Part shown: positions 26,918-62,506 of the stretch, piece after piece
Layout of the letters: each line of letters starts with the position of its first letter
Numbering within the stretch: the stretch's first letter is position 1
NCBI GenBank assembly: GCA_965248755.1
Contig: OZ252149.1
Location: forward strand, 992,001-1,056,000
Reading direction: 5' to 3'
DNA length: 64,000 nt
From: Candidatus Latescibacterota bacterium
GTDB taxonomy: Bacteria; Latescibacterota; CBDEFO01
Translations under genes and position numbers: made by a program
The notes under the pieces: model-generated
What the model was told of the DNA's origin: nothing
What the model saw: the letters and a program-made list of their open reading frames with translations, nothing else
Databases searched by the model: none

Positions 26918-29900
26918 TTACTTACTCACGGCCGCCTTTATGAAGACCTCTTCCTGTTTCCCGTTACCCGTAGCCTCAAGCCGAAAGATGTAAAGACCGC
27001 TTGCGTAATTGCTCATATCCATCAGGATTTCATTATCCGACACCGGTTCTAAATCGTCCTTTGACATCTCTCCCACAAGCTCTCCCGCTCCGTTGAACAT
27101 TTTGACGTTTATCCTGGCTTCTCCTCCCAGGAAGAACCTTAAATGAGCCGAATCACCATCTATGGGATTGGGATAACAGTAAGCTCTGTCCGAAGGCAGA
27201 AGACTTACAGATTGCGGGGGGGGGGATGTAACACCCGGATAGACTCCTGGATTAGCCGGACCTGCGTTTGACTGACCCCACGTTATATCGGTTCCCGTGT
27301 AGGATGAAGCTATCTTGGATATGTCCCAGACATGAGCAGTACCCGAGGCGGTCAGAGCGCACAGTTCGAGGCGGTCATCGCCATCCAAATCATCTATTAC
27401 AAGCGATGAGACGATATCTCCTATCGAGGTTAGAGGAAATCCGGAGGCTATTTGACCGTCAGAACGGAGGGCGTAGACCAGATCTTGCGATGTCCCGAAA
27501 ATTATCTCCTGATCCCCGTCGCCATCTATGTCAGCCGCGATAGGCGAAGATGCGATCCCTCCGACCTTATCCTTCAGAGGCAAAATGAGGGGAAAATTGG
27601 CCTCTGGGATGCCGTTAAACCTCCAGGCGTGCACCTTTCCCTCTCCCGTAAATACAACCTCCAAAGAACCGTCTCCATCCAGATCGGTCAAAATAGGGGA
27701 CGACCGAATATCATCTCCGATATCTGCCTGGAACAGCGGACGTTCCTCCCCGATAGACTCAATCAGGGATTTAGAATAGACAGTCAAAATCCCATTTTCT
27801 GACAGGAGGATAATTTCAACCTTCCCGTCTCCATCCATATCTCCAAGCACGGGAGAACCTGAGGGACGACCTTCGATATTGCCGACCGGAGCTTGCTCTC
27901 CGCTTCCGTCCTCTCCTACGATAAATAGTTCTCCCTCTTCGTTGACAGCAATTATGTCCTTGCCCTTTATTGCTATCCCGACTATCTTTGACCCTCCTGT
28001 TTCGACTTTGCGAAGGAGGCTCCCATCCTGGCCATCTAAAATGGCAATTGAACCGTCGTCTGAGCCTACTATAACTTCTCCTGTCGCATCCGTATCCACG
28101 TTAGAGATAATTGGAGCCGTCGAGGCACCTATCCCCTCTATTCTCCACAGTAGAGAAGTGGACTCAGAGTTCCAAGAAGATACGTCTCCGTTTTCGTGAA
28201 CCAGCACGACTTCTGGCGTCAAATCCCCATCCACATCGCCTACCGCAGGGTCGAGTAGGACACCAGAATCCGTCTGAAAGGCAGAAAGAGTCGTCCCATC
28301 CAACCTCCAGATATGCACATTGCCATCGCGCGCGACGGCTATTATCTCTTTTTCCCCATCTCCATTTACATTAACGGTCTTCGGAGACGCCACGAATCCC
28401 GACGGCAAAGAGAGCGGCCATCCTTCCTTATTTGCGTTAAACGTAATTTCCACCGTCATTTCATCTTGTAGAGAGTCCTTCACAACTATCGTAATACCCG
28501 TCACTGTCCCGGACTTGCTATCTGAACTCGGGACAGTAGAGGGCGAAAAGGCCGTCGCTCCGCCCACAAAAAAAGGATCTTTCTTTGACCCGGCGATCCC
28601 GGCGATCCTATCGAAATTAAGATTGCCGATGTCCTCATAGCCGTCTGCCTCTTCAAGGTCTATGCCTCTGTCAAAGGAATCATCATTTATACTTCCTGTA
28701 GCTCTTTTTCCCCTTATAACGGCCTTGTCTATATGCCATATCAATATCCCTGATCCGGGGATATAGGAATCGTAGCTGTCGACGGAGAGCCACACTCCCG
28801 CGCTGTCCCCTGTCGAATACTCCACATCGGGAAGTTCACCCTCCCGTCGTCTCATCTGTCTGTTTTCCAGGAGAAAGTATTCGTCGGAGTCTATGGGAAC
28901 CAAAACCGCTTTGGGGTGGTGGGACGAAATGTCTGTTGCTGCAATGGTCAGAGTCGTATCTCTGGTCACCTTTAGGGGGTCTATCCATCCGAGTTCTATC
29001 TTCGACCACGCCATGGGATAGCTCGGAACGTATCCCAGAAGCCCAGCTCCCACGTTTATAAATCCAGTATCCATCAAACTCCAGCCACCTACGGCGGGGA
29101 GATTATCTTCAAAGTTCGATAGCCCCGGAAGTCCCAGTTGATTCCCAAAGATCCGCGCCGCCGTCCCGTTCAAGCCGCCTACGCCATTTTGACTTATAGA
29201 CTCCGGAAGTATCCAACCGTTATCTATGGCGAAAGATCCTTCCTCCACAAAGACAGGACCGCCCACAAAAGTATCAAAGTCACGAGGAGATAGATAGGCA
29301 GATGGGATATCGTTCAAAGCTCCTGTGCTGCCGTCCATCCCTGCGTGGATGACCAGAAAACTGTTGTACTGCTCAAAATCTAAGTTGTCCCCTTCCACAG
29401 AATCGGCCAAGGATAAGGCGTTCTTAAACAGATCAACCAACCTTTGATCGATCTCGTCCTGATTCCTCCCGTTTCCGTAGCTTATCATTGTTCGTCGGAG
29501 CTTGTAGCTGGAGTCCTGTTTTGTCGGGAAGACATCGAATCGGATCTCTACCTTGCCCTCTGAGACTTTATCGTAGTAGTTGGCAAGGGCCTGAAGATGC
29601 CATTCGAAGTACTGGCGATTGTGCGGGGGGGTGTCGTAGGGAAATTCATACGAGGGGAGGGCTTCCTGGAAGCTCCTCAGATCAAATATACCGTCCCCTG
29701 TGGTTGTAGGATCGTCCGGCTCCTCTTTAGGGAACTCCACCCTTAGTGCCAAAATGTTCCACACGGAGTCGACCCCCCCGATTAAATCGGGGGTCGACCT
29801 CTCTTGGTCCGAGGACGAAGATGCGGCAAACGATAACACCAAGCAAAGAGCAGATAGGCTAAGGCAAAGACAGCTACGCAGTTCCTTCGCCTTTCCCTTC

Positions 29901-29965
29901 TTCTTTCTATAGTGTGGACGTTCCTTTGCCTTAGGAGCGTTGCAAGAAGGCTTTGCCATCCTCAC
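26918..29965 (-). CDS. Secreted M6 (immune inhibitor A)-like protein with degenerate zinc motif, FG-GAP repeats and T9SS type A-like CTD
   Basis: LALRVEF, VIHAG, WSLMD.G, EYFLLENRQ and GILIWHID; many D.DGDG repeats; YCYPNP...ASGLYIFR C-terminus. Confidence 0.85.
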   Translation of the reverse strand: MRMAKPSCNAPKAKERPHYRKKKGKAKELRSCLCLSLSALCLVLSFAASSSSDQERSTPDLIGGVDSVWNILALRVEFPKEEPDDPTTTGDGIFDLRSFQEALPSYEFPYDTPPHNRQYFEWHLQALANYYDKVSEGKVEIRFDVFPTKQDSSYKLRRTMISYGNGRNQDEIDQRLVDLFKNALSLADSVEGDNLDFEQYNSFLVIHAGMDGSTGALNDIPSAYLSPRDFDTFVGGPVFVEEGSFAIDNGWILPESISQNGVGGLNGTAARIFGNQLGLPGLSNFEDNLPAVGGWSLMDTGFINVGAGLLGYVPSYPMAWSKIELGWIDPLKVTRDTTLTIAATDISSHHPKAVLVPIDSDEYFLLENRQMRRREGELPDVEYSTGDSAGVWLSVDSYDSYIPGSGILIWHIDKAVIRGKRATGSINDDSFDRGIDLEEADGYEDIGNLNFDRIAGIAGSKKDPFFVGGATAFSPSTVPSSDSKSGTVTGITIVVKDSLQDEMTVEITFNANKEGWPLSLPSGFVASPKTVNVNGDGEKEIIAVARDGNVHIWRLDGTTLSAFQTDSGVLLDPAVGDVDGDLTPEVVLVHENGDVSSWNSESTSLLWRIEGIGASTAPIISNVDTDATGEVIVGSDDGSIAILDGQDGSLLRKVETGGSKIVGIAIKGKDIIAVNEEGELFIVGEDGSGEQAPVGNIEGRPSGSPVLGDMDGDGKVEIILLSENGILTVYSKSLIESIGEERPLFQADIGDDIRSSPILTDLDGDGSLEVVFTGEGKVHAWRFNGIPEANFPLILPLKDKVGGIASSPIAADIDGDGDQEIIFGTSQDLVYALRSDGQIASGFPLTSIGDIVSSLVIDDLDGDDRLELCALTASGTAHVWDISKIASSYTGTDITWGQSNAGPANPGVYPGVTSPPPQSVSLLPSDRAYCYPNPIDGDSAHLRFFLGGEARINVKMFNGAGELVGEMSKDDLEPVSDNEILMDMSNYASGLYIFRLEATGNGKQEEVFIKAAVSK

Positions 29966-29981
29966 AGGTGGACGATCCGCC

Positions 29982-31037
29982 TTAGAAGTTCAAGTTTACC
30001 GAAAACTTCGTGCTGTCCTGGAGGGGAGAATCCTTCGAACCGCCAGAGATGTAGGCAAAATCGAATCTCACCCAGTCGTACTTGAGACCTACGCCGAAAG
30101 TCGGGGTTTTGATCTCGCCGTCCTTGTCGTAGGTGTAACCGGCTCTCAGAGCGAAAAAGGAGTTTTGATTGGGATCCAGAAAGTACTGATACTCTCCTCC
30201 CAAGTGGATGTCAATTTCGTCTCTTTCATTCTTGAAGGATTCATCTCCCCACGCCTTGACCAAAGCTACCAGGAAGTTACTGTCCCTGGTTATTAAGGGC
30301 TTATAGAAGTCGGTCGTCAGCATTATGTCGTTAAACTCGGTGTTGAGGATCTTGTACGACGCTCCGACTACGATGTGCTGAGGTAGTGGATCTGCCTGAG
30401 AAGCATCTACGAAGCTGATTTTGGGCCCCAGGTTGCGAAGGGCGACTCCGAAGTTGATGCCGTCTTCTGAGCGCCGCAGGTAGCCAAGATCGGTGGCGAA
30501 CGTTGTGCCGACGCCATCTCCTCTCTCCTTACCGGTGCCTACACCTGCAAGATTGCTGCGGATTATCTTGAGCGTAAGACCCGCTGCACTCTCTTTAGTT
30601 ACAAACGCTCCGTACGAAAGTGAAAGGGCAAAATCGTAGCTGGAGAACGTTCCTAAATCGTTGTTGAACTCGTCTCTCCTTTCCTGAGTTCCCAAAGTGA
30701 GGAACGAAAGGTTGACCCCGAAGTTTCCCCATCCTTCAATAGGCTGAGAGTATCCGACAAACTCGAAGAACAGGTCATCCGCCAGCCCTGGAAGCCACTT
30801 GGTATGGGTAAAGGTCATATCCCTCTTTTTCTGTCCCGCTAAGCCAGCAGGATTAAAGTAGCTGGCTGTGGCGTCGTCCGCTATAGAAACGTAAGCGTCG
30901 CCTAAGGCTGAGGCCCGTGCCCCCGGCTCTATCAACAGAAAGAGGACAGCAGCCTGGCTTTCTGGCGTAGCCTCTGAAGGTGGTGCAAGAGAGAGGAACA
31001 TTATCGCTGAGATGACGATACGAATGACTAGTTGCAT
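29982..31037 (-). CDS. porV: PorV/PorQ family outer-membrane protein
   Basis: FLLIEPGARASALG, DDATASYFNPAGL and RNLGPKISF motifs. ATG 31037 follows AAGGAGG; the track's longer N-terminus is a translated REP. Confidence 0.85.
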   Translation of the reverse strand: MQLVIRIVISAIMFLSLAPPSEATPESQAAVLFLLIEPGARASALGDAYVSIADDATASYFNPAGLAGQKKRDMTFTHTKWLPGLADDLFFEFVGYSQPIEGWGNFGVNLSFLTLGTQERRDEFNNDLGTFSSYDFALSLSYGAFVTKESAAGLTLKIIRSNLAGVGTGKERGDGVGTTFATDLGYLRRSEDGINFGVALRNLGPKISFVDASQADPLPQHIVVGASYKILNTEFNDIMLTTDFYKPLITRDSNFLVALVKAWGDESFKNERDEIDIHLGGEYQYFLDPNQNSFFALRAGYTYDKDGEIKTPTFGVGLKYDWVRFDFAYISGGSKDSPLQDSTKFSVNLNF

Positions 31038-31077
31038 TTTTACCTCCTTTTGACAAAGGGAATAAAATAATTCCTTT

Positions 31078-31161
31078 GAGATTGCTTCGGGGTTCCACCC
31101 CTCGCAATGACTAAGGCAAAAGCCAAGCAAACTGTCATTGCGGGCGAAGCGAGGCAAACTC
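31078..31161. repeat. Inverted REP pair
   Basis: GAGATTGCTTCGGGGTTCCACCCCTCGCAATGAC / GTCATTGCGGGCGAAGCGAGGCAAACTC. Confidence 0.8.
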
Positions 31162-31178
31162 AATTCTGTCCTGGTTGA

Positions 31179-34100
31179 CTATCTCATAACTACAATCTTA
31201 TCCGTCTTTTCATCTTTGTCTCCTCCAGATCCGAGGACCTCAATTTTGTAGAGATATACGCCGTTTGCTAACTTGACATCGGGTATCCAACCAGTCTGGT
31301 TGTATCCCGTTCCAGTCTCCCCCTCAAGATCGTCTATAAGTCTGCCTGAAGGTGAGAACACTTTGATCTTTACCCTCCTAGCTGGATGACTGAGTTCGTA
31401 CGTGAAGGTCGTTTGGGACGTCATCGGATTCGGATAGCACAAAAGGTTTGAAACCGAAAACTCCCTTTCGGAAGCTACCACGACCCGTACAACCTTCTTG
31501 GATGAATTGTTGAACGTATCCCAGGCTTTAACTACTATAGTATGTTCTCCTTCTGAAAGCTGCGGGAGTTGATACTTCAGAACCCCCATCTGGTAGCCGT
31601 CTTGGTTTACAAAGTTATCCGTAACCTTAAAGACCTTTTCGTCATCTATTTTGATCTGTATCTCGTGCCCTATTTCCCCTGTTACGTTTATTCCGTTTTC
31701 GTCCTGGATAGTCGCTTCTAGAATAGGAGTGCGCGATACAAAATCCCCGTCTTGAAAGCCTTTTTGTCCCTGGAATCCTATCTCAATAGTAGGTCCTGTC
31801 TCATCTTGCACGGAAGTTTCTGCAGTTCCAGTTATAGATATAGACTCAACTTCACCTGTGCCTGAGATCCTGTCGTTCCATACAAACGCGCTTATTCTGG
31901 CAAAACGCCCCCCGTATGTTATGTCCTTGGGGACCTTAAAAGCGCCCTCAAAGTGACCGTTATCCACGGGGAGGGTGCCTTTAAATATAGTAGCTCCGGG
32001 GAGAAGATAGCTGACGTCTCTGGGAGACAGAATAGTCCTGATTACTTGAATCCCCGAGTCGAAGACCTTTATAATGGCCTGTCCCTGGAAGTCTGTAGGA
32101 TCTCCATCAGGTGATAGCACGGAACCTTCAAACGTAACCTCTTCTAACGCCTTGATGTTCTTTGAGATGGCGATGTCAACAGAAAGTCGAGGGAGGGAAA
32201 GCCTTGTGCCTGGGTCCCCGAAGATGGTGTATCTGCGGGTGTTAAAGATAGCGGAAACGTTGACCAGTAGCTTTGCTTCCCAAAATGCCAGGCCTATGGG
32301 GACACTTTCTCTTTCTGAAAGGAAGAGCCTGTCGTAGAATCTCCTGTTCAGATCCATGTTTGAATTGTGAAAGCCTATTCTTGTGGCTCCGATGACGGCT
32401 ATGCACCCTCCCTCTGGCCATTTGACCATCGTCTCGGGCATAGATTCAAAATCAGGGTCGTCGAACCAGCCTGTCTGGCTTGCCGCCAGATACATCAGCG
32501 GAAGCTTCCTGCCGTTGTTTATCTTGGACATGTCGCTTGAGGCTACAAAGACATGCTCGTGGGCAAGGACATCAGAGTTTCCGTGCCCGACATAGCTTAA
32601 AAGCAACGCCCCTTTATTAAAAGCGTCTATGAATGCCCTGTTGGCATCGGGTTTGAATCTTCCTATTTTGTCAAATTCCATAAGGAATATCTTAACCTGA
32701 TCCAACTCCTGCGGCACAAAATTTAGCGATATATCTTCGGCATCCTGGGCAAAAATGGGCTCTATTCTACCCGGCCTGGACTGCCTTTCGTCATCCGCCA
32801 CGATAATGATCTTGCTTTGCCAGTCTCCTATCTCGGGATCTCTGTCGTAGCCGATGATCTTATCCGAGACAATCTTCGCCTCTTCTTTAGTCTGAACGGA
32901 GATCCTTCCTATAGCCATATCAGGACGCCTGTCTCTGTCGCCACTTACAAGGACGTACCACTCGTCCAGACTGCTTATGCTCTTCTCATAGGGAGGTATC
33001 CAATTACCCGGGCTGATGCCGCTGTTGTTCTTGTAATCGAACGACCCGTCGCCGAAGAGATTGACAAATGTCGGTCTTATCCTCCAGTTGCCGAAAGTAT
33101 GCTTCATAAAATCCCTTATGGCTGTAGGATCGAAGACCCCCCAGGAAAACTCATCGTAGATGTGTTCAACATCTATAAGCTCGACAGATAGGGGCGGTCC
33201 AAAGCGGTCATCGGTCTCCCTCCATTCGGCAAGCCTTCTGGCCTCGTCAATAAAGTCCCTGTGCGTAATGAGCAGATAGTCGGCGCCATTATCGGGGCTT
33301 CTGAGGTTGGAGTTTTCCTTCAAAGATATTCTAGCGGGAGACTTCCACTGAGAATCTAACGCAATACAATACTGCATGGGAGGATCTCTTCTACCTTGGC
33401 CCTGAAATGTGACGGACTCCTTGCCACTGTCGTAGGAAAAGTTGACAACCCTTAAGACATTGAAAGGATCTGAGACCTCAAGAATTTCAAAGATCGGACT
33501 TAAAACACCGGAAATTTCAAATTGGGCGCTCCCGGAATCGACAGGGGAGGTGAAGAAGAGTTCCCCCTCGTCTATGACGAACTTTCTAGAATACTCTAAT
33601 TCGTACCAGTCCAGTCGGACGGATGTCTTTCCTATCTGTCTTATCTCTAAATCATTAAGTCCGTCCCTGGGAGGCTCGGGAGACTCAAGCTCTACGATCT
33701 CTGGAGTTCTGTTGTAGAACTGAGCGTTCCCAAGGGAAGAGCCGTTGAAAGAGAACGAAAACTCGTGCTTTACGTTGTCTTGATTGCCTAGAAATCTGAC
33801 TTTAACGTTTGTAGGTCCTTCGGCAGGAGAGGTGATCAACCGCCTTTTGACTCTCCTGTTTCCTGAGTAATCTTCCCAGTACCACCGTTTTCCCGAGTCC
33901 TTCTCAAACGAAAAGAGTTCCTGCTCAACGTGGAGTCTGTCCCTATAACTTAAGGGACGCACAGGGTCAGGTTCCTTGAGACTGCCGTCCTGAGGGATCA
34001 TCCTCTTGCCCTGTCCACTCCCGAAGGTAAGCCAATATACGTTCTGTCTGGTAAATTCATTAAGGAAGTACGCAAATTCCTTCTTCCTCGAGAAATAACG

Positions 34101-35054
34101 CCATCTGGAGATATTGTTCCCGTAGAAGAGCACATAATCGTCCGGATCCAGCCTTCCGTCTCCTTCGTCCTCCACGAGGATAGCTATCTGGTCCATATTC
34201 TGTCTTCTTGGGGTGAGCATTCCCTCGGGGAGTTGTTCCCCCCCTCCGTAAAACATCTTTATGGTCTTCGGATCGATCCTAGATATGTCCACTCCGGAGT
34301 TTTGGATATCCCGGCCGCTTATGACATGTATTCCATCATCTTCGATGTAAATCTTCAGCCACTCTCCCGAAGCAAAGGGACCATCAGAAATGACCTTGGG
34401 ACTGGAGTCATCTGTACCTTTCCTCCAGTACTTGCCCTGTTGATAGTTGAGAAGGATTTTGTATATTTCTTCTCCTATTTCCGATTCACGGTGAGAGACG
34501 GAGAGGGGACCTTCATAATCGCCGTAGAACCCAATATTAGCTTCTATTTGCTTGTAGGCGACGATATGATCTTTTGAGGGATCGTACACCGCTGGGTAAA
34601 AGGTGAGGGTAACGACACTTTGATCCCTCAAAGTGCCCGGTTCTGAAAGAACCACCGCTTGTGTTGGCGCGTCACGATAGTCCTTTGTGGACTCAGTCTG
34701 AAAAATTTTATGCGGTGGAACACTATCTACTCGTCTGAGTATAGCCCCGCCCTTAGGTGGAACCGCTATCAAGAAGGATTCTGAAGGGAAGACTATCGAA
34801 CCTCTGCCTGTCTCCGCCTGATCCACGTCCATAAAAAGAGCTACGTCCTCCCTTACGTTTCTTTCTAACCGGGCTCCTTCAAATTCATCTATCGTGTAAA
34901 CTAATCCTATTCCAGAACGATCCGAACTTGTCACTGCTATATGTCCGGCCTCACTGTACGCCGATAGGCCTAAAATTAAGGAGGTAAACAGAGCAAAGCG
35001 ATGCATATATAAGCCTTCTGCGGACACCTTGCGAATTTTTTCACCGATGTTCAA
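31179..35054 (-). CDS. porU: PorU-like C25 (gingipain-fold) T9SS sortase with a CTD; Ser at the catalytic Cys position
   Basis: IYDEFSWG..DPTAIRDF, LFGDGSFDYKN, YVGHG, IFGDP, D..GP.I, D.NGIN...IGH, KAWDTFNNSS and YPNP...NGVYLYK motifs. Alternative start at ATG 35006. Confidence 0.88.
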   Translation of the reverse strand: MNIGEKIRKVSAEGLYMHRFALFTSLILGLSAYSEAGHIAVTSSDRSGIGLVYTIDEFEGARLERNVREDVALFMDVDQAETGRGSIVFPSESFLIAVPPKGGAILRRVDSVPPHKIFQTESTKDYRDAPTQAVVLSEPGTLRDQSVVTLTFYPAVYDPSKDHIVAYKQIEANIGFYGDYEGPLSVSHRESEIGEEIYKILLNYQQGKYWRKGTDDSSPKVISDGPFASGEWLKIYIEDDGIHVISGRDIQNSGVDISRIDPKTIKMFYGGGEQLPEGMLTPRRQNMDQIAILVEDEGDGRLDPDDYVLFYGNNISRWRYFSRKKEFAYFLNEFTRQNVYWLTFGSGQGKRMIPQDGSLKEPDPVRPLSYRDRLHVEQELFSFEKDSGKRWYWEDYSGNRRVKRRLITSPAEGPTNVKVRFLGNQDNVKHEFSFSFNGSSLGNAQFYNRTPEIVELESPEPPRDGLNDLEIRQIGKTSVRLDWYELEYSRKFVIDEGELFFTSPVDSGSAQFEISGVLSPIFEILEVSDPFNVLRVVNFSYDSGKESVTFQGQGRRDPPMQYCIALDSQWKSPARISLKENSNLRSPDNGADYLLITHRDFIDEARRLAEWRETDDRFGPPLSVELIDVEHIYDEFSWGVFDPTAIRDFMKHTFGNWRIRPTFVNLFGDGSFDYKNNSGISPGNWIPPYEKSISSLDEWYVLVSGDRDRRPDMAIGRISVQTKEEAKIVSDKIIGYDRDPEIGDWQSKIIIVADDERQSRPGRIEPIFAQDAEDISLNFVPQELDQVKIFLMEFDKIGRFKPDANRAFIDAFNKGALLLSYVGHGNSDVLAHEHVFVASSDMSKINNGRKLPLMYLAASQTGWFDDPDFESMPETMVKWPEGGCIAVIGATRIGFHNSNMDLNRRFYDRLFLSERESVPIGLAFWEAKLLVNVSAIFNTRRYTIFGDPGTRLSLPRLSVDIAISKNIKALEEVTFEGSVLSPDGDPTDFQGQAIIKVFDSGIQVIRTILSPRDVSYLLPGATIFKGTLPVDNGHFEGAFKVPKDITYGGRFARISAFVWNDRISGTGEVESISITGTAETSVQDETGPTIEIGFQGQKGFQDGDFVSRTPILEATIQDENGINVTGEIGHEIQIKIDDEKVFKVTDNFVNQDGYQMGVLKYQLPQLSEGEHTIVVKAWDTFNNSSKKVVRVVVASEREFSVSNLLCYPNPMTSQTTFTYELSHPARRVKIKVFSPSGRLIDDLEGETGTGYNQTGWIPDVKLANGVYLYKIEVLGSGGDKDEKTDKIVVMR

Positions 35055-36395: not shown

Positions 36396-36495
36396 AGAAG
36401 GCCTCCTCAAAAGAAGTAGTCGGTAGCCCCCGACCCCCGATAGAGTCAATCGGGGGTAGACAGGGCCACTCCACCCCCTGCTTACTGTCTATTAA

Positions 36496-39481: not shown

Positions 39482-39512
39482 TTAACTATGTCCGTTTAAT
39501 AGGTTCTTCCTG

Positions 39513-41235: not shown

Positions 41236-41250
41236 GATACTCTACACCAT

Positions 41251-51894: not shown

Positions 51895-52014
51895 TTAACT
51901 TCAGTAGACAGTAACCCCCGATAGATTCAATCGGGTGTAGACAGTAGACAGGGCATCTGCCGCCGCCTACTATCTAATCTGTTCTCTCTACTCCTCTATC
52001 TCCTTTCAAATCGT

Positions 52015-52299
52015 TTACTTTCCCGGCTTACTTATAGGCAGCACTTCGTCCAGGCTCGCATGCGGGCGCGGTATCACGTGCACAGACACAACCTCTCCCA
52101 CCTTCTGGCCGGCTGCAGCACCCGCATCGGTAGCGGCCTTCACAGCCGCCACGTCACCCCTCACGAGCGCCGTTACGTATCCCCCGCCTATCTTCTCCCA
52201 GTTCACAAACTGAACGTTTGCCGCCTTGACCATGGCGTCAGCGGCCTCAATCATCGCCACAAGCCCGCGAGTCTCTATCATTCCCAGAGCCTCACCCAT
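52015..52299 (-). CDS. BMC shell hexamer (BMC-H, EutM/PduA-like)
   Basis: [29 protein letters not shown] and HVIPRPH motifs. Confidence 0.97.
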
Positions 52300-52366
52300 T
52301 ACATTTTCTCCTTTCTAACAAAGTTTATGGACAGTCCGTCCTCAGCGCAAGCTTAAGTTTTACAGA

Positions 52367-52639
52367 TCACTTAAGTATCACCTCGTCCAGATCCGAATGC
52401 GGGTTGGGGATCACGTGAGACGACACTAACTCCCCGACTTTCCCAGCGGCTTCCACACCCGCCTGCACCGCCGCCTGCACCGCGCCCACGTCGCCCCTTA
52501 CGAAGGTCGTAACGTAAGCCGCGCCTATCGCCTCATACCTTTGGAGGGTCACATTAGCCGCCTTGACCATAGCGTCAGACGCCTCTATCATCCCCACCAA
52601 ACCCTTCGTTTCAACCATCCCAAGCGCAGTTCCTTCCAC
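52367..52639 (-). CDS. BMC shell hexamer (BMC-H)
   Basis: GTG start after [25 protein letters not shown] and HVIPNPH motifs. Confidence 0.96.
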
Positions 52640-52692
52640 TTTCTCACCTCCTTGACTTTTATTGCCAAAGCCTGAAGCCCTGTTAAGAACTG

Positions 52693-52721
52693 AAAATACC
52701 ACTATCCGACCATAAAGTCAA
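52693..52721 (-). promoter_or_regulatory. Promoter of the BMC operon
   Basis: TTGACT-17 bp-TATTTT with TGG extended -10. Confidence 0.55.
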
Positions 52722-52801
52722 GCATAAAAAATCACACGGATCACTGCGTTGACCGCCCTGGATGTCCTATTAGACTCCAAGGAGAAGCAACAAATAAAAA
52801 G

Positions 52802-52825
52802 CGGATAGATTTTGAAATCTATCCG
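52802..52825. promoter_or_regulatory. Perfect inverted repeat, candidate operator
   Basis: CGGATAGATTT-TG-AAATCTATCCG between divergent promoters. Confidence 0.55.
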
Positions 52826-52898
52826 TTCAGACTTGATAAAATGCACACGAGTAGCTACATTTAACAATCGAATAATCAATCCACTGTCAAAGGAGAAT

Positions 52899-53105
52899 AT
52901 GATGGCTGCGACATCTGTAACTATAAGACTTAAAGATGAGACTAATAGCTCCATTGAAAAGCTCGTCACAGAGGCTATCAACAGGACGGTAGTAGTGAAC
53001 GCAGCTCTAAATCACTTTGTGAGCCTGCCTTACAGGGACCAGAAAACCATCATTGTGGACTACGTCTACAAAGAGCCTGAGATAGAGTCTCTGGCAAGCG
53101 ATTAG
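52899..53105 (+). CDS. Ribbon-helix-helix-like small protein
   Basis: AAGGAGA then ATG; SVTIRL beta-strand followed by two helices; promoter TTGATA-17 bp-TACATT at 52833..52861. Confidence 0.6.
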   Translation: MMAATSVTIRLKDETNSSIEKLVTEAINRTVVVNAALNHFVSLPYRDQKTIIVDYVYKEPEIESLASD

Positions 53106-53109
53106 AGTT

Positions 53110-53282
53110 AGCGGAACACAGGCCACCAAGATAAGCGTTCCAAGGAGATGTCTCCATTGTTGATGACAGTGCGCCCAATACCAGGGCACGAAAATACTGT
53201 CACCATCCCGGATAGAATGTTCCTGATGATTTATGATGAGAGTTCCTACACCATCGGATGAAAAATAACTCCTGAACCTCAA
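53110..53282 (-). pseudogene. Possible cupin-domain gene remnant
   Basis: GVGTLIINHQEHSIRDGDSIFVP resembles a cupin G-x-G...GD.IFVP segment; no convincing start. Confidence 0.4.
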
Positions 53283-53294
53283 CTCTACGTAAAT

Positions 53295-53508
53295 GCCCGG
53301 ACGCTCGGGAAGAGCGATGCGCCCTCGAAGAAAACAGGACCGTAAAGCAGTTGTCGGGATTATGCTCCGCCCGGGCCCTTTCTAACTCTCCGGGTCGCTT
53401 TCAGCCACCGCTGCAAGGTATACTTCATTTTGCGCTTTGCCATCTTAGAGTGCGACTGAGCTGCCCGCCTGCTCCGACGCAGCCGCTGTCAGCTTGTCCA
53501 TCCGGGAC
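53295..53508 (-). ncRNA. Candidate ~215 nt structured ncRNA of unknown class
   Basis: Nested 5'/3' helices with many G-U pairs that work only on the minus strand; promoter TTGACT-17 bp-TATCAT at 53553..53581; no ORF. Confidence 0.55.
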
Positions 53509-53734
53509 TCGAAAGTTTTACGATCAATGATGAACAAGCACATTTGGAGGCAATGATATTAAATGAGGGTGCGAAAGTCAAGGATATTGTTCTGCAAAAT
53601 CCCGGTACAACGCGAAAACTGGGAAATCGATTGAAATTGGGTGAATTTTAGCGGAAAGATGGATAGCGTGGAGATAAAACCCGTTCGGCAAGGTTTTGAA
53701 GAAGATATTGTCACAGAAAGGTAAAAGATGCCTT

Positions 53735-56700
53735 TCAGGCAGCATTCACCCCATCTCTATTGAGGTCGAGTCTGACGGAGACGAGCTGAGACACTCCCGG
53801 TTCTCCCATAGTTACGCCGTGCAGACAGTCCGACGCCTCCATGGTGCGTTTGTTATGAGTCACGATTACAAATTGCGTTCTGTCTGAGAATTTGCGTATG
53901 ACCCTAATGAACCTTTCGATATTAGCGTCATCTAATGGAGCATCCACCTCGTCGAGTATGCACAACGGGCTGGGCTTGACCAGGTAGATGGAAAAGATGA
54001 GGGCTATGGCGGTCAGTGTCTTCTCACCGCCTGACATAAGGTTTATAGACTGGAGCCTCTTGCCCTGTGGCCGGGCAACGATGTTAATCTCGGACTCCAG
54101 GGGATCATCGCCTTCGGATAGGATCAAATCGGCCTGGCCCCCTTCGAAGAACTCCACGAACGTCTTTCGAAAATTGGCTGCCACCTTTGAAAACGTCTCG
54201 ATAAACATGCTCCTTGCGGTGCTGTCTATCTTGGCAATAGTCTTTTTCAGATCATCCTCCGCCTCCAAAAGATCGTCTCTTTGACCGGAGAGGAATTCAT
54301 ACCGCTCCGTTCCTCTTTCATATTCCTCAATAGCCCCTATATTGACTGGTCCGAGGCTCCTTATCCTCCCCTGTGTCTCCTCTATTTGCATCTGGGCAAG
54401 TTCAGGGTTGAACTCTTCCTCCAAAGGTTCTACCTCCACCACGTCAACTCCGTATCTGTCTCTTAAGTTCTGTCTTACTATGCCGGCTCTGGACGTAAGC
54501 TGTGAATGCTCAAACTGGAGATCTGAAAGGTTTTCCCTGCGCTCGTCCTGCACTCTCCTCTTAGCCCTTATCTCATTCTCTAATTCTCTTTCTTTGACCT
54601 CTAGTTCGTGATATTCCGAATCTTTTGTGTCCCTGTCCTTTTCTATCTGGGATCTTTGGGAATAGAGATGTTCAAGCTCATCTTGGTCCCTGTCTTTTTG
54701 AGCTTTGAGCCTATCGAGTTCCTCACCGGCCTTTTCGGATTGGGCTTTGGAGTCCGACAGGGTCTTCTCAAGTTCGTCTGTCTGTATGTTACATCTCTTC
54801 ACATCCGACGAGAATCCCCGCAAACGCTCCTCAAGCGAGGTCATCTTTCGTCTCAGTTCGTGGACTCCCTCAGCCTTTTGGTTCCTGTTCTCCTCCAGAG
54901 TGCGCAAAGCCCGTTCGTACTCACCTGAGGATTGACTCAGTTCCTCTTTTTGCCCTTCGAGTCTTTTTATCTCCAATGCTTGATTTTCTATATCCTCCAG
55001 AAGCTGTTCGGATCTTTCTTTAAGCTCTAAGGTCTCCTTTGAAATGGACTCCAACCTGGCCTGCAACCTTTTTATGTCAGATCTACTTTGAGCCTCCTGT
55101 TGTTTGAACTCGGACAGCTTATCTCTGAGCTCTAATAGGCTATCCAAGGCATTTGACAGGCTAGCTGAGATTGCCGAGATACGAGCCTCCGATCCCGCCA
55201 TCTGCTCTGAGAGGCGATTTAGGTTTATGCCCTCTTCCTCAATCTGTGCCTGTATGACCTCTATCTGCTCCGTCCTGCCTATAAGGCTCATATCTACCTC
55301 TGTCGGATTACCTCCTGTTATCTGGCCCGACGGTTCGACTATGTCTCCCTCGATCGTAACGAATCTTGTGGAATTACCGTTCTCTAAGGAGCAGGAAAGG
55401 GCCGTCTTCAGGTCTTCCACCACAACTGTTTTTCCCAACAGGAGGCGGACAATGGGGGCAAGCTCATCATCGAACCTGACAAGATCGACAGCTTTACGGA
55501 GTCGCCCCCGATTTAATCGGGGGTCGACCTTTTCTTCGGATCCCCTTCTTGTCAGGGGCTTTTGGCTGGACTCGTTTTGCTCTTTGTCATCTTTAAACTC
55601 CCGATCGAATCTATCGTGGATCACTCTGTCCATCGGAAGAAACGTGGCTCTCCCTCCCTCCTGTTCCTTCAAGAACGAGATCGAACCTGTGGCTGTCTCC
55701 ATCTTGTCCGTCACCAGATACTCCAGTGACTGCCCCAAAGCCGCCTCTATAGCCTTGGCGTATTTCTCCTGCGTGTGAAGCAGATCTGCTAAAGTTCCCC
55801 TTATCTGGTCTTTATAGGGAGAGCTTAATATCAGGGTCCTTACGCTCTCTGAATATCCCTCATACGACTCCCTTATCTTTTCCAGGAGCGCCAGAGCCGC
55901 CCTTTTGGCCTCTATCTTCCCTTTAACATCTGATAGCTGCTCCCTGATCGAATCTAATCTTTTCCTCTCCCCCTCAAGTTCCCCTTCAAGAGTCACTTTT
56001 TCGCGGCTGATCTTTTGGATAGCCTCGTGTGTTTCTCGATTAGCTTCAAGGGCATCCTGCTCTCTTTTTAAAGCATCTTTAAGCTCTGATTGAGCGCCAC
56101 ACTCCTCTTCGAGCAGTTTCTCCAGACGAGAGAGGATATTGTCCTTGTGGGCTTTATCCCTTTCAATGGCTCCCCTGTTCTGAGACTCAGAGCGGAAAAG
56201 CTGGATCAGTTTTTCTTTGTGAACCTCGAGTTCAGACCTCTTTTCCGAGTAGGAGCGATCCAGCCTTGCCAATTCCTCCTCTTGGACATTGAGGCTATCT
56301 TTGATCGATAGATAGTCCGCCTTGACTCTTGTTTTACTCTCTTCGGCTTTTTCACTTTCTCTTCTGGTTTGATCTAACTTTCGAGTCGCCTCGGCGACCT
56401 CCAGCCCAAGCCGCTCGATGTCCTTTGTCAGGCTCTCCATCCTTGCTTGGGCCTTTATCACCTCTTCGCTTTTTCGTTGGATAAGCTCCATCTGGCTGTT
56501 GAGAACTTGTGCTGTTCGAGAGCGCTCTTTGTCCTTCTCGATAAGATTGAGTCTTATTCTCTCAATCTGGGACTCCATCAGGGAAAGTCCAGACGCGTCT
56601 TCCTCTATCTCCACTCTAAGTTTTTCTATCTGATCTGCCAAGGGACGTATCCTTGTCTCCAGATGATAGTAATTATGCCGACCTAAGGAGATCTCTGATT

Positions 56701-57370
56701 CCTTTAACTTTTCCTGATACGCCTGATATCTTCTGGCTTTGCCGACCTGTCTTCTAAGATAGGCTACCTGATTTTCCACCTCCGCTATGATGTCTCCTAT
56801 CCTTAGAACGTCCTGCTGTGTGGATGTCAGCTTGTTCCAGGTCGCCTTGCGGCGCACCTTGTACTTTGTTATGCCCGCTACCTCCTCAAACAGACGTCTC
56901 CTGTCCTCCGTGCTATTTCCGATAATGGCCTCAACCATGTTCTGCTCCATAACGGTGTAGGCGTGTGGCCCCATCCCTGTATCCATAAAGAGGTTATTTA
57001 CATCCATCAACCTGCACGGGACCTTATTAAGCAGATAATCGCTCTGACCTGACCCGAAGATCCTGCGTGTGATCTGAACTTCGCTAAACTCTATTGGCAA
57101 AATATTCTTGGTGTTCTGGATGGTAAGCGTAACTTCCGACATTCCCAGCGGTTTTCTGGTCTTACTGCCGCAGAATATTACATCCTCCATCCTATCGCTC
57201 CTTAGCAAGCTCGGTCTCTGCTCGCCTAAAGCCCACCTTATGGCATCCACCACGTTTGTCTTGCCGCACCCATTGGGGCCAACTATAGACGTGATCCCGT
57301 CTCCCAAGTCCAAAGTGATCTTATCAGCAAAGGACTTAAAGCCGAATATTTCAAGACGGTGTAGATACAC
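53735..57370 (-). CDS. smc: Chromosome segregation protein SMC
   Basis: GFKSF, GPNGCGKTN, hinge GRATFLP, MSGGEKTL and LDEVDAPLD motifs. Confidence 0.98.
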   Translation of the reverse strand: MYLHRLEIFGFKSFADKITLDLGDGITSIVGPNGCGKTNVVDAIRWALGEQRPSLLRSDRMEDVIFCGSKTRKPLGMSEVTLTIQNTKNILPIEFSEVQITRRIFGSGQSDYLLNKVPCRLMDVNNLFMDTGMGPHAYTVMEQNMVEAIIGNSTEDRRRLFEEVAGITKYKVRRKATWNKLTSTQQDVLRIGDIIAEVENQVAYLRRQVGKARRYQAYQEKLKESEISLGRHNYYHLETRIRPLADQIEKLRVEIEEDASGLSLMESQIERIRLNLIEKDKERSRTAQVLNSQMELIQRKSEEVIKAQARMESLTKDIERLGLEVAEATRKLDQTRRESEKAEESKTRVKADYLSIKDSLNVQEEELARLDRSYSEKRSELEVHKEKLIQLFRSESQNRGAIERDKAHKDNILSRLEKLLEEECGAQSELKDALKREQDALEANRETHEAIQKISREKVTLEGELEGERKRLDSIREQLSDVKGKIEAKRAALALLEKIRESYEGYSESVRTLILSSPYKDQIRGTLADLLHTQEKYAKAIEAALGQSLEYLVTDKMETATGSISFLKEQEGGRATFLPMDRVIHDRFDREFKDDKEQNESSQKPLTRRGSEEKVDPRLNRGRLRKAVDLVRFDDELAPIVRLLLGKTVVVEDLKTALSCSLENGNSTRFVTIEGDIVEPSGQITGGNPTEVDMSLIGRTEQIEVIQAQIEEEGINLNRLSEQMAGSEARISAISASLSNALDSLLELRDKLSEFKQQEAQSRSDIKRLQARLESISKETLELKERSEQLLEDIENQALEIKRLEGQKEELSQSSGEYERALRTLEENRNQKAEGVHELRRKMTSLEERLRGFSSDVKRCNIQTDELEKTLSDSKAQSEKAGEELDRLKAQKDRDQDELEHLYSQRSQIEKDRDTKDSEYHELEVKERELENEIRAKRRVQDERRENLSDLQFEHSQLTSRAGIVRQNLRDRYGVDVVEVEPLEEEFNPELAQMQIEETQGRIRSLGPVNIGAIEEYERGTERYEFLSGQRDDLLEAEDDLKKTIAKIDSTARSMFIETFSKVAANFRKTFVEFFEGGQADLILSEGDDPLESEINIVARPQGKRLQSINLMSGGEKTLTAIALIFSIYLVKPSPLCILDEVDAPLDDANIERFIRVIRKFSDRTQFVIVTHNKRTMEASDCLHGVTMGEPGVSQLVSVRLDLNRDGVNAA

Positions 57371-57453
57371 TAAACGCTTCCCTTTCTATTTCTCCCCTTT
57401 TGGCAGAGAAGAGATCTGTCCTTACTATATCAATATCTTGTATGCTGAAACGT

Positions 57454-57482
57454 AATATACAATATATAGTATTAGTAGTCAA
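57454..57482 (-). promoter_or_regulatory. Sigma70-type promoter of smc
   Basis: TTGACT-17 bp-TATATT. Confidence 0.6.
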
Positions 57483-57668
57483 GAAAAAAATTCTCAAGCG
57501 CTTTGAAAAACATCCGTTTTGCGAAAAGAGTTTGTATAAAAGTATATCGTTATTTATATTATATTTCAAGTCGAATCGAGTCGTTTCGGCATGTCTTACA
57601 GGTAAAGAAATGCAGACAGAAGCAGGTAAGTATAGCATAATTACAAATCTCACGTAATCGGAGGCAAA

Positions 57669-58547
57669 ATGGACCGAGCATCAAAGCTCAGAGAATTGAT
57701 CGAACGTCCGGGGACGACCATCCTGCCGGGCGTCTTCGACGCAGTCTCAGCCAAGTTAGTGGAACAGATCGGTTTTGAGGTAGTTTTCACGAGTGGGTTC
57801 GGAATTTCAGGTACTACCTTAGGGATGCCGGACATGGGTCTTCTGACGATGACGGAGACCCTGGAGCGCGTCAGGAAGATCGTTGGAGCTGTGGACCTGC
57901 CTTTAGTGGCGGATGTGGACACAGGCTATGGCAATCCCTTAAACGTTATGCGGACAGTTAGGGAATGCGTTGAGATGGGGGTAGCAGGAATTATACTGGA
58001 AGACCAGGAATGGCCCAAGAAGTGCGGCCACTTTGAGGGCAAACGCGTAATCCCGTGTGACGAGAAGATACAGAAGGTCAAAGCGGCTGTAGAAGCCAGA
58101 GGGGATAAAGACCTTGTGATCATAGGACGCACCGACGCCCGCGCCCCGCTCGGTCTGGACGAAGCTGTAGAGAGGGGCATTGCCTACTTCAAGGCGGGGG
58201 TTGACGTGGTCTTCGTCGAAGCTCCTCAGTCTGTGGATGAACTGAAGAGAATTTCAGAGAAAATAGACGCGCCACTATTTGCCAATATGATAGAAGGAGG
58301 CAAGACCCCGTTTCTCTCCAGAGTGGAGCTGGAAGATTTAGGCTACAAGCTTGTGGTCTATCCTCTGTCCGCCCTTTTTGCTGCGACAAAGGCTATGGCA
58401 GATGTGTTTCAGAAGTTGAAGGACGATGGCACGACAGCAGGATTTGAACCTATGGTCTCCTTCCACGAATTTGAGGAGATTATCGGAGTGCCAAGATACA
58501 GGGAGATTGAGAGCAGGTTTGTCACGGGCGAAAGGGACGCTGTCTGA
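57669..58547 (+). CDS. Isocitrate lyase/PEP mutase family protein (methylisocitrate lyase-like)
   Basis: DVDTGYG, LEDQEWPKKCGH, RTDA and NMIEGGKTP motifs. Confidence 0.92.
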   Translation: MDRASKLRELIERPGTTILPGVFDAVSAKLVEQIGFEVVFTSGFGISGTTLGMPDMGLLTMTETLERVRKIVGAVDLPLVADVDTGYGNPLNVMRTVRECVEMGVAGIILEDQEWPKKCGHFEGKRVIPCDEKIQKVKAAVEARGDKDLVIIGRTDARAPLGLDEAVERGIAYFKAGVDVVFVEAPQSVDELKRISEKIDAPLFANMIEGGKTPFLSRVELEDLGYKLVVYPLSALFAATKAMADVFQKLKDDGTTAGFEPMVSFHEFEEIIGVPRYREIESRFVTGERDAV

Positions 58548-58692
58548 AGGGATTGCTTCGGGGCGCCCGCCCCGAAGCAATCTGGTGAGACAGGAGGCAA
58601 ATCCACCGTCAGTGGTCATGACCGGCACTGGCTGATGAAAAGCCTACCCTCGGATAGACGATTTTGCAGTAAAAAAAAGGACTTGACCCCAA

Positions 58693-59655: not shown

Positions 59656-59665
59656 ATTATTAATG

Positions 59666-59922
59666 TAACTCAAGTTGTGACCTGCAAGGAGTTAATGCTG
59701 TAAGCCATAAATAACCTTTAATTCGAAAGCCTTCGGCGGTTACCGCATGAATGAATATGTTTAGACAAAAGACACTCTTACCAAGGCAGTTGTCATGATC
59801 TCGGCATCATTGACCTTGCATTGGGGTTTTCTCGGTGATTGAGGCTCTCTTAGCAACTCGTCGCGCAGGCAATAGGTCGTAATGATCTTTACCTATTTAG
59901 CAATACATCACAACTTAGGTTA
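59666..59922 (-). mobile_element. Internally deleted IS982-family-like element (MITE-like remnant)
   Basis: Terminal IRs TAACTCAAGTTGTGA / TCACAACTTAGGTTA (13/15). Frameshifted transposase N-terminus (IITTYCL.DELL..NHRENP.CKVNDAEIMTTALV) joined to C-terminus (IHAVTAEGF..K...MAYSINSLQVTT*). Confidence 0.75.
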
Positions 59923-60085
59923 TAGTATCCTCACCTCCGAAAATAGATCCGCCACGCGAAAGCCTTGATGGCGTCGTATCGAACGCGTCCCAATAGACGG
60001 TAGGCCAAACCTTCCCAATTGTCGCTCTTGCGGAGAATCCACAACAACATTTTCTTTGTTAGTGACAACTCCCTTTTGCCACTTT

Positions 60086-62506
60086 TCATAAATCTATCTG
60101 AACAATTGTCACACCGTCCCCGCCTTCTTCCCATGCTCCGGGCCTTTTGGACTTTACTCTCGGATGCTTTTCCAAGAAAGCGTTCAACTTGGTCCGCAAT
60201 GCGCCTGTCCCCTTCCCGTGAATGATCGATACCTGCCTTAATCCTTTCAGAAATGCATCGTCCAGATACTTATCCACCACCTCCGACGCGTCGTCGAAGG
60301 TCATGCGTCTGACTGTTACTTTGTCCGAGATATTCGATGAAGCTACCAGCTTCACTCCAGCAGGAGCGGATTTAGACACATTCTGCTCACAGAGTCGCGC
60401 CCGATTAAATCGGGGATCGGCCTTACCGCCGTCGCCTTTTGACAAAACCTTCAAGTGTGAAGTAGGGATTTCAACTCTGATTTTACCTACATCAACGTTC
60501 GCCTTATCAGAGTCTGTTAAGGATACAACTACCCCTTCTCTTTCAAAACTGTCAACCCACACAGTATCTCCAACCTGGACCTTTCCTCTGTCCATCTTGG
60601 CACTGGTATAGTCCTTCAAACTCTTGTCTACCTGCTCAACTGCATCTTTTATGACCCCTCTGGCTTCCTTTATCGCCTGTGTGCTGGCCTTTTGGGATCT
60701 TATCTCGGCTACAGTCCTTTCCACCAAAGCCTTAGCCTGATTCAAAATTCTTCTGGATTCCTCAAGAGCTTCCTTCTGGATACTTCTGCTCTCCCGCTTC
60801 ACATCCTGGAGCTTATCTTCGTACTCGGACTCCATCCTTTTGGCTTCGCTTAGAGCCTTTTGTAACTCTATGTTATTTCTCTGGTAATCGAGTCTTTGAC
60901 GGTCCAGCTCGACGATTAAGTCCTCCATACTCCTGACCACGCCGCCTGTAATTGAGGCGGCTTCTTCCACTACATCCTCCGGCATTCCCAGTCTTCTGGC
61001 TATCTCGAACGCATAGCTGCTCCCCGGAGTTCCAATCCTCAGAACGAACGTCGGCTCTATCGTCTCAGGATCGAACACCATCGAAGCGTTCTCCATGTTG
61101 TCCTTTTGATGTGCAAATAGCTTCAAAGTTCCATGATGGGTTGTAGCTACTGTCTTTGCACGCTTTCGGGACAGAGTTTCAAGGACAGCCATTGCCAGGG
61201 ACGCCCCTTCGTCGGGGTCGGTGCTTGCACCTATCTCGTCGAGGAGCACTAAGCTATCCCTGTCCGACTCGTTGCAAACCTTTACTAACTGTCGGACGTG
61301 AGACGAGAATGTGGAAAGATCGTCCTCAATCGACTGCTCGTCCCCTACGTCTGCATAGACCTTCTTAAAGACGCACAGCTCAGATTTTGGATTTGCCGGG
61401 ATGTGTAGACCGCATTGAGTCATCAGTGTCAAGAGTCCAACCGTTTTTAAGGCCACCGTCTTCCCGCCTGCGTTCGGACCTGTTATAATCAGTGTATTGA
61501 ACTTATCTCCTAAGCTTATATCCAGAGAGACGATTCTCTGTGGATCTTCTACTGTTTTCTGCCTTAATCTCCTTTCCAGGATAGGATGCCTTGCACCCAT
61601 GAGGACGATCCTTCCTTCATCGTTCAGTAGTGGTTCTGTCCCTTTGAAGTCCAAGGAAAAACTCGCTTTAGAGAAGAAACCGTCTAACTTCCCTAAAGCT
61701 CCCAAGGACCGGGAAATATCATCTTTTACCTTTCTCACTTCCTGCGTAAGCTCTCTTAGTATCCTTTCGACTTCCCTTTTTTCCTCGATCTGCAGCTGAC
61801 GGAGTTCGTTGTTAAGTTCCAGAGTTTCTAAAGGTTCTACAAACACCGTCGCTCCACTTGCGGACTGATCGTGGATGATCCCCTCGACTTTGCCCCTTTG
61901 CCTCTCCCTTATGGGGATCACAAATCTATTGTCCCTTATTGTCACCAACCTCTCCTGAATCACTGAGCTTGGAAGTCTCTCTATCATCTTGTCCAGCTCG
62001 CCCCTTATATCGTCCCCTACTTGCGATGTCCTTCTCCTGATCTCCTTTAGCCGTCTGCTGGCTGAAGTCTTGACGAGGCCCTTCTCATCTATTACTCTAT
62101 CTATCTCATTTTCCAGTACCTGTGAGTCTATCAACATACGTGCAAGATCAAACAAGGACGGACAAGTTTCTTTTCGCTTCTCAAGATAACGTTTGAGATG
62201 CCTCGAAGCCGAAAGCGTCTCCTTTATGTTCAGAAAGTCATCGGTGTTCAGCATCGAGCCTTCGATCGATGATTTATCTATAGCTTCGCGCACATCCCTA
62301 ATCCCGCCCATAGGCACGGGATCGTCGAACGCTATGAGATCGACAAGTTCCGATACCGTCTTGAGTCTACCCCTTATCTCGCCAAGATCCTCTAAAGGAT
62401 GCATCCCTGCTATCTCATCTTCCCCCAGAGCAGATACGGCGTAGGAGGAGATCATCGCTTTGACCTTCTCGAACTCTAAGACCTGCAAGGTATGTTCATC
62501 GATCAT
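60086..62506 (-). CDS. mutS2: Endonuclease MutS2
   Basis: TGPNAGGKT, LSTFSSH, LLDEIG and TTHH motifs; Smr domain IIHGKGTG; likely start ATG 62506. Confidence 0.96.
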   Translation of the reverse strand: MIDEHTLQVLEFEKVKAMISSYAVSALGEDEIAGMHPLEDLGEIRGRLKTVSELVDLIAFDDPVPMGGIRDVREAIDKSSIEGSMLNTDDFLNIKETLSASRHLKRYLEKRKETCPSLFDLARMLIDSQVLENEIDRVIDEKGLVKTSASRRLKEIRRRTSQVGDDIRGELDKMIERLPSSVIQERLVTIRDNRFVIPIRERQRGKVEGIIHDQSASGATVFVEPLETLELNNELRQLQIEEKREVERILRELTQEVRKVKDDISRSLGALGKLDGFFSKASFSLDFKGTEPLLNDEGRIVLMGARHPILERRLRQKTVEDPQRIVSLDISLGDKFNTLIITGPNAGGKTVALKTVGLLTLMTQCGLHIPANPKSELCVFKKVYADVGDEQSIEDDLSTFSSHVRQLVKVCNESDRDSLVLLDEIGASTDPDEGASLAMAVLETLSRKRAKTVATTHHGTLKLFAHQKDNMENASMVFDPETIEPTFVLRIGTPGSSYAFEIARRLGMPEDVVEEAASITGGVVRSMEDLIVELDRQRLDYQRNNIELQKALSEAKRMESEYEDKLQDVKRESRSIQKEALEESRRILNQAKALVERTVAEIRSQKASTQAIKEARGVIKDAVEQVDKSLKDYTSAKMDRGKVQVGDTVWVDSFEREGVVVSLTDSDKANVDVGKIRVEIPTSHLKVLSKGDGGKADPRFNRARLCEQNVSKSAPAGVKLVASSNISDKVTVRRMTFDDASEVVDKYLDDAFLKGLRQVSIIHGKGTGALRTKLNAFLEKHPRVKSKRPGAWEEGGDGVTIVQIDL

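Follow-up and report, generated by a model that had tools for sequence, protein, structure and literature searches.

A short, almost certainly mobile hairpin repeat with in-frame copies in SMC, MutS2 and other proteins of a Latescibacterota genome

We analyzed a 64,000-nt stretch of DNA (hereafter the window) from a single-contig, 4.54-Mb source genome (G000), whose window homologues are named Latescibacterota, and found in it ten copies of a short hairpin repeat, lying in the genes for SMC, MutS2 and an M6-like protein and also between genes. The repeat, in its main form a 23-nt hairpin, is almost certainly mobile. G000 was compared with a sister genome of the same genus (G001), which is about 95% identical to it and of which 2.78 Mb of about 4.6 Mb were examined; the completeness of the two genomes is 98% and 96%, respectively. 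A first-pass annotation of the window had claimed nine of the sites, and we found all nine in place, with their peptides translating as claimed; the tenth, at 55598-55620 in smc, was absent from it. The same annotation had proposed in-frame insertion in SMC, MutS2 and the M6-like protein, and an alignment with orthologues bore this out; at these positions each of the three exceeds its homologues in length.

The smc gene (53735..57370, minus strand; Pfam SMC_N and SMC_hinge 522-659) hosts two elements in its hinge. One is a 35-nt composite (55496..55530, plus strand) made of ACGGAGTCG, a 19-nt short hairpin and TCGACCT, with TCG repeated on both sides of the hairpin; its short core at 55507-55521 is read as part of KVDPRLNRGRL, and the composite folds at -13.2 kcal/mol (z -4.9). 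The other is a decayed 23-nt long core (55598..55620, minus strand) that encodes HDRFDRE and amounts to a net gain of 27 nt over the empty site in G001. A contig of run X1 is identical to the window across 51906-58025, the region that includes smc. The SMC hinge is 24-27 residues longer than in 12 of 13 orthologues and 15 residues longer than in the thirteenth, and the extra length falls in the stretch that separates two blocks with matches to 1GXJ and 5H69. Moreover, the RGRLR of the composite aligns onto conserved hinge columns, and, judged from the alignment, the composite may have displaced a hinge strand. In G001 the smc composite carries a further nested hairpin (+14 nt), and the gene (L002/L019, G001:C4 about 407500) is frameshifted at a G run within it. 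Contigs of runs X4 and X5 have 42 gap letters at this nested element, which would be in frame, versus 41 in G001, and the frameshift is likely a read error.

In mutS2 (60086..62506, minus strand; Pfam MutS_III, MutS_V, MSSS and Smr), a 35-nt composite (60389..60423, plus strand; short core 60400-60414) lies in the linker between the SH3 and Smr domains and encodes KADPRFNRARL. This linker is 69 residues long in the window, compared with 50-59 in 17 of 41 aligned homologues, and 75 residues long in G001, where the composite holds a nested long element (+18 nt). The third host gene (26918..29965, minus strand; Pfam FG-GAP_3 and Por_Secre_tail) encodes an FG-GAP protein with a type IX secretion system (T9SS) tail, whose homologues are named M6 family metalloprotease-like, and it also holds two elements. 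A 38-nt composite (29763..29800, plus strand; short core 29777-29791) directly follows an apparent signal peptide and encodes RSTPDLIGGVDS; G001 has the 35-nt form there, and 15 of 15 aligned homologues from outside the genus show a gap of at least 11 columns at this start. A 23-nt long-core element (27747..27769, plus strand) encodes SLIESIGE in an FG-GAP loop, with a net gain of 18 nt over the empty G001 site; the six residues added at 27749 relative to G001 fall in a loop that varies anyway, being 52-67 residues long in homologues and 60 in the window. The M6-like gene belongs to a T9SS-type cluster at 23714-35054 that includes a PorU-like C25 peptidase, PorV and a peptidase MA/PD40 protein, and the longest open reading frames of this cluster begin early by reading through repetitive extragenic palindromes (REPs).

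The other copies in the window are a long-core element at 8256..8278 (minus strand), intergenic and inside a GTCATTGC-type REP, where G001 has a second copy nested (+19 nt); an intergenic long-core element with two mismatches at 16639..16661 (minus strand), also present in G001; a short-core hairpin at 23595..23613 (plus strand; core 23597-23611 with one mismatch) inside an intergenic GTCATTGCG-type REP, in a region where G001 is too divergent for clean alignment; a long-core element following the left arm of an outer copy at 36428..36456 (plus strand), the right arm of which is retained in G001 (+12 nt); and an intergenic long-core element at 51915..51937 (plus strand) inside a GTAGACA tandem repeat, where G001 has a nested pair. 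The long cores of these intergenic copies are at 8258, 16641, 36436 and 51917. A fragment of an Mrr-type endonuclease domain lies at 17879-18220.

Genome-wide, the repeat is far more abundant than chance would allow. The palindrome CCCGAT-N7-ATCGGG occurs 278 times in G000 and its N3-spaced form CCCGAT-N3-ATCGGG 22 times, against 0.82 expected for each spacing, and a fuzzy search returned 546 sites in G000 and 335 in the examined part of G001. The main unit has 23 nt, Y-CCCCGAT-AGA(T/A/C/G)TCA-ATCGGGG-R, with an AGAttCA loop, and 206 exact copies of it have unique flanks. Its outer pair, either T-A or C-G, shows covariation (160 of 206 versus 88), and the flanks outside the 23-mer showed no pairing in these copies. 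The stem is thus 8 bp, and the loop is 7 nt in the 23-mer and 3 nt in the short form; rare sisters with a 5-nt spacer exist. The 19-nt short hairpin, earlier taken to be the principal form, accounts for 32 of the 546 sites, so that its presumed sister, the long core, is in fact the main one. The TCG flanks, previously read as a general rule, are peculiar to the composite subfamily of about 35 nt, in which ACGGAGTCG and TCGACCT stand on either side of the hairpin; we counted eight such sites in G000, three of them with a long core. The empty form of the composite is rare, with a few near-match places only, and its flanks are common to unrelated genes. The element has no match in Rfam and none in viral contigs, and no clear replication-strand bias was visible by eye in G000.

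Several lines of evidence support the earlier claim that a 20-35-nt element of this kind is mobile. When sites were mapped between the two genomes, 65 of 267 G000 sites lacked the element in G001 and 60 of 260 G001 sites lacked it in G000, many of these unfilled sites in the raw mapping being larger indels or multi-copy carriers. Once the comparison was limited to single long-core sites that had a net length of 15-30 nt and firmly anchored flanks, and sites with identical flanks were merged, 35 unique clean filled/empty pairs were left. Gains were also found inside other mobile DNA. [quoted passage not shown] In addition, it has inserted into itself in 68 nested cases, and a further gain of known direction lies in a copy of an IS630 transposase in metagenome locus L277.

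The element does not aim at proteins. Our gene calls gave 3683 genes covering 78.5% of G000, and only 93 of the 546 sites lie in genes, with 21 at gene edges and 432 between genes; the coding density of the element is 0.056 of the intergenic density. Short cores have the larger coding share (15 of 32, versus 78 of 514 long cores). Both orientations occur in genes. Stop codons occur in two of the six reading frames, and these frames are rare (3 of 78). Polymorphic sites have a length that is a multiple of three in 13 of 15 cases in genes versus 6 of 47 outside them, or 6 of 26 outside after carrier copies were merged by hand (p 2e-4). Together, these results show that proteins are not targeted, and that the element enters genes rarely and the survivors are filtered by selection for frame. 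The element prefers other hairpin repeats and its own arm: 241 of the 546 sites lie within 45 nt of another REP motif, versus 190 of 3000 random intergenic places, and 61 more lie beside the element itself only. We scanned 25 host proteins of G001, among them PheS, LpxD and Fmt-, FabF- and MsbA-like proteins; the insert in PheS is a clean six-residue gap against the solved chains 4P71 and 2RHQ. The inserted peptides (SPIDSIG, SPIESIG, PDRFNRG, PRLNLSG and PDLIG) appear, from where they fall in the alignments, to be tolerated by-products in loops, linkers and termini. The element gives core proteins a measurable supply of short loop insertions, which are not aimed but are filtered by selection.

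The footprints of insertion are imprecise. Relative to the 23-mer, the net change in the 35 orthologous events was -8 (one event), -5 (three), -4 (nine), -3 (eight), -1 (one), +1 (one), +2 (one), +3 (two) and +4 (nine). When empty counterparts of 475 unique sites were sought anywhere in G000 and G001, a set that overlaps the 35 events, 51 were found, at -8 (one), -5 (five), -4 (ten), -3 (14), -2 (three), +1 (one), +2 (one), +3 (six) and +4 (ten), with none at 0 or -1. Both sets have the same two peaks, one for losses of 3-5 nt from the target and one for gains of 3-4 nt. Among the 68 nested copies the offset was -4 in 42, -5 in eight, +3 in five and 0 in three, and +3 was found in 10 of 63 on a looser list; nearly all of them enter after the outer CCCCGA and then lose TAGA (-4) or add three bases (+3), which indicates that one junction is fixed while the other floats. 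Bases lost from the target often resemble YCGR, the sequence at the ends of the element. Within 7 nt of the junction, a position differs from the empty site in 3-13 of 35 events; beyond 9 nt it does so in 0-3 (once 5). Moreover, an internal variant, CATTC, goes with the right flank CAGG in 9 of 24 copies, versus 11 of 451 others, and a second internal variant is linked to its flank in 18 of 36 versus 31 of 439, partly through nesting. The mismatches near junctions and this linkage, together with the composite's flanks that recur in unrelated genes while its empty form is rare, show that flanks are inherited: the donor copy often supplies the bases next to the hairpin.

The element is identical in at least two phyla. 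In a survey of 151 genomes of the phylum it was found only in G000 (256) and G001 (289), and the remaining 149 had 0-3 matches with unrelated loops, which is background; a separate count on 31 genomes agreed. Among the matches listed, the exact 23-mer occurs in records labelled Deltaproteobacteria and Thermodesulfobacteriota, with a single occurrence in a possibly misbinned Nanoarchaeia contig of 3.5 kb (11 of 80 loci). In one deltaproteobacterial order, 9 of 13 genomes, all nine carriers being drafts, contain the 23-mer letter for letter in 1-18 copies. Metagenome matches (80 of 120 listed) cover 37-68% GC, and the in-frame copies among them include RelA and the IS630 transposase of L277.

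The explanation we favor, with about even confidence, is that of a mobile 23-nt hairpin, neither coding nor autonomous, with sisters of 19 and about 35 nt, that has no enzyme of its own in this genome and is copied into nicked or cut DNA by what is probably a host pathway. Hairpin-forming DNA would be nicked or broken with a 3-4-nt stagger and repaired by copying from, or annealing to, a single-stranded donor copy. The cut would set one junction (CCCCGA^TAG in self-insertions), and the other would be closed at 2-4 nt of microhomology; the cutter could be a host enzyme or a nuclease borrowed from another element. Several points weigh against this account. No enzyme or intermediate was found, and the mechanism rests on the footprints; the loop, being identical across phyla, points to a protein that reads the sequence rather than to general repair. 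For 424 of the 475 sites there is no empty counterpart, some empty sites in the comparison of the two genomes may be losses, and the gene calls are our own. A perfect duplication accompanies only one of the nine +4 events, and the excess of direct repeats of 3 nt (43 versus 12) and 4 nt (19 versus 2.9) at the 475 sites was rejected as proof of duplication, since tandem-repeat targets can mimic it.

A nuclease or transposase gene flanked by the cores was looked for, as the first-pass annotation had advised, and none was recognised. The 38 genes of G000 flanked on both sides by the element are, by eye, ordinary enzymes and transporters, and the neighbors of metagenome copies (62 of 111 listed were scanned) are mixed housekeeping genes and one IS630 host. 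No Y1/RAYT gene was found in G000 or G001, and no RAYT gene flanked by the repeat; Ku was not found (0 of 5). IS110 (none in G000, one in G001) is not common to both genomes. A small GIY-YIG gene (96 residues) was considered as mover and rejected, being present only in G001 and flanked by a different REP pair. This gene (G001:C4:479806-480157; not found in G000) lies between an inverted GTCATTCCC REP pair in a duplicated region, with which it forms a candidate REP-associated nuclease cassette; our literature search found no paper linking GIY-YIG genes to REPs. As a separate observation, G000 has 169 exact GTCATTGCGAG REP ends and other REP types, yet no Y1/RAYT gene.

An alternative, that the element is not itself mobile but an old repeat that owes its spread to carriers and to gene conversion, hairpin deletion accounting for the differences between genomes, would fit the roughly 31 of 546 copies that ride in IS3-like and MITE elements and the about three quarters of mapped orthologous sites that are filled in both genomes (402 of 527). 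It is extremely unlikely, as the directional gains in IS3-like, MITE, IS630 and self copies largely refute it and insertion at conserved loops of PheS, RelA, MutS2 and SMC speaks against it. We also consider it unlikely that the element is a REP singlet without a tag, the mover of which, an HUH tyrosine transposase (RAYT/TIRYT), has since been lost from the genus or is too divergent to recognize. Its REP-like size and shape argue for this, as does a stem resembling that of CGTC REPs (8-9 bp, AT first, in excerpts of PMC3733652), together with AT..AT flanks in 70 of 822 strand hits, a one-sided CYTG at 53 of 475 sites (never on both sides), and 3-13 Y1 matches in each of five deltaproteobacterial carriers. 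However, neither G000 nor G001 has a Y1 match although gains are younger than their split, the GTCAT tag is found in none of the 822 strand hits, no Y1 gene among those listed is nearer than about 1.3 kb to an exact copy, and the two-peaked, sloppy footprint also counts against an HUH enzyme. RNA-templated insertion, in which the transcribed hairpin is reverse-copied into nicked DNA, could account for target duplication and deletion at one site, both of which fit target-primed copying on general grounds, and for the two orientations in genes. We rate it as very unlikely: reverse transcriptases number two in G000 and none in G001, the two in G000 look like defence enzymes, one of them cut by an IS, only three of nine deltaproteobacterial carriers have one, and the hairpin lacks an Rfam match. 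The two enzymes, neither found in G001, are a retron-like one cut by an IS3-like copy beside a 294-residue gene (L165, G000:C1:3730098-3733640) and one of 507 residues (L166).

The hairpin might instead consist of two overlapped tips of an IS1380 inverted repeat (IR), the folded single strand mimicking a transposon end and being moved by the resident IS1380 transposase, a reading we regard as quite unlikely. It builds on the one positive lead to a mover: the first 13 nt of the element match the IR CCCGATTAATTCA of an intact IS1380 at 11 of 13 positions, and the other strand at 10 of 13 (random P about 2e-5 per comparison), a comparison that was made after the likeness was noticed. That IS1380 has a MITE of about 250 bp with 4-bp duplications that is active in both genomes, and only this genus has its IR in abundance, with 57 and 76 matches compared with at most 7 in 59 other genomes. 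In eight of the nine +4 events one side equals the target 4-mer, give or take a single mismatch, and the opposite side is often foreign. IS1380 is linked to piggyBac. The one-sided +4 pattern is as expected of piggyBac-type 4-nt donor flaps (excerpts of PMC7351741). At its boldest, this would make the hairpin the smallest possible transposon, with overlapped IS1380 IR tips moved in trans by a DDE transposase with 4-nt donor flaps, crossing phyla unchanged and seeding loops of 6-12 residues in proteins that are essential, SMC, PheS, LpxD and RelA among them, a prospect to which we give little credence. The transposase is present in G000 and in pieces in G001, but none of the nine deltaproteobacterial carriers, in their draft genomes, has it and one of nine has the IR, whereas the IR occurs in 13 genomes of the phylum that do not carry the element. 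Moreover, footprints with a deletion, which are not a product of DDE strand transfer, are commoner than gains, and the MITE targets YTAR, unlike the element. Since the IS1380 IR is thus neither needed nor enough, we favor nick-directed copying from a single-stranded donor by what is probably a host pathway, then an HUH enzyme, IS1380 in trans and RNA templating, in that order. The intact IS1380 (444 residues) lies at G000:C1:2921193-2922842 (L167), with about 45 MITE copies of 230-275 bp that hold two REPs, make perfect YTAR duplications and are polymorphic between the two genomes. A second IS1380 family (468 residues; G000:C1:1056424-1058041, just past the window end) has about 48 copies, few of them in the examined part of G001, and many have long common DNA beyond one end, as in capture of neighboring DNA.

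The movement of repeats shorter than 30 nt, among them the small dispersed repeats (SDRs) of Nostocaceae and the CGTC REPs, is an open question. SDRs are 21-27 nt long and insert in frame. In the excerpts of PMC4390886, PMC5861425 and PMC2884548, SDR4-6 (reportedly described by Elhai et al. 2008, Genome Res 18:1484) are, like our hairpin, dispersed and apparently mobile repeats of about 20 nt without a known enzyme, and SDR5, which only Nostocaceae have, enters HIP1 at a precise point between bases 3 and 4. Unlike SDR5, as compared by description, the hairpin has a two-peaked, imprecise footprint (0 of 51 at offset 0), carries donor flanks and spans at least two phyla. The REPs tagged CGTC or GTAG (Di Nocera et al. 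2013, excerpts of PMC3733652) are 20-40-nt hairpins that lie mostly between genes, although some are in frame, genes for replication and repair included; the CGTC REPs have no dedicated transposase, a stem of 8-9 bp and a loop of 4-5 nt. Our element resembles them as a small, mainly intergenic hairpin with some copies in frame, and its 8-bp stem fits CGTC. It differs in lacking a tag (GTCAT in 0 and GTAG in 3 of 822 strand hits) and a CCA tail, in its loop of 7 or 3 nt, and in forming singlets, not dimers, that insert into REPs; its peptides do not occur in the four supplement files of PMC3733652 that were searched.

Other palindromic elements share less with it. Rickettsia palindromic elements also insert in frame in unrelated proteins, but are 105-150 bp long and often coding in the excerpts of PMC3184786 and PMC10969869, whereas the hairpin has 19-35 nt and is strongly depleted from genes. 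Like REPINs, it is miniature, non-autonomous hairpin DNA (Bertels and Rainey 2011, PMC3116915); a REPIN, however, is a doublet beside a RAYT whose singlets, in the excerpts of that paper, were not seen to excise, whereas our singlets move and no RAYT was found. It recalls IS1380-family MITEs in its ends, which match the local IR at 11 of 13 positions, and in the class that gains 4 nt, but it falls below the 50-500-bp MITE range (excerpts of PMC10969869), shows no constant 4-bp duplication (+4 in 10 of 51), and the transposase was not found in the second carrier lineage. Our literature search, outside which most subscription papers lie, found no paper on this element. The hairpin works like the Nostoc SDRs and the intragenic REPs, a known but unexplained kind of element. 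Its footprints and variant-flank linkage constrain the chemistry and name testable candidates, and the family offers several things that are missing for the SDRs and CGTC REPs: a genome that is closed and has a close sister, a self-target that is fixed and shows two opposite footprints (-4 and +3), and internal variants linked to their flanks.

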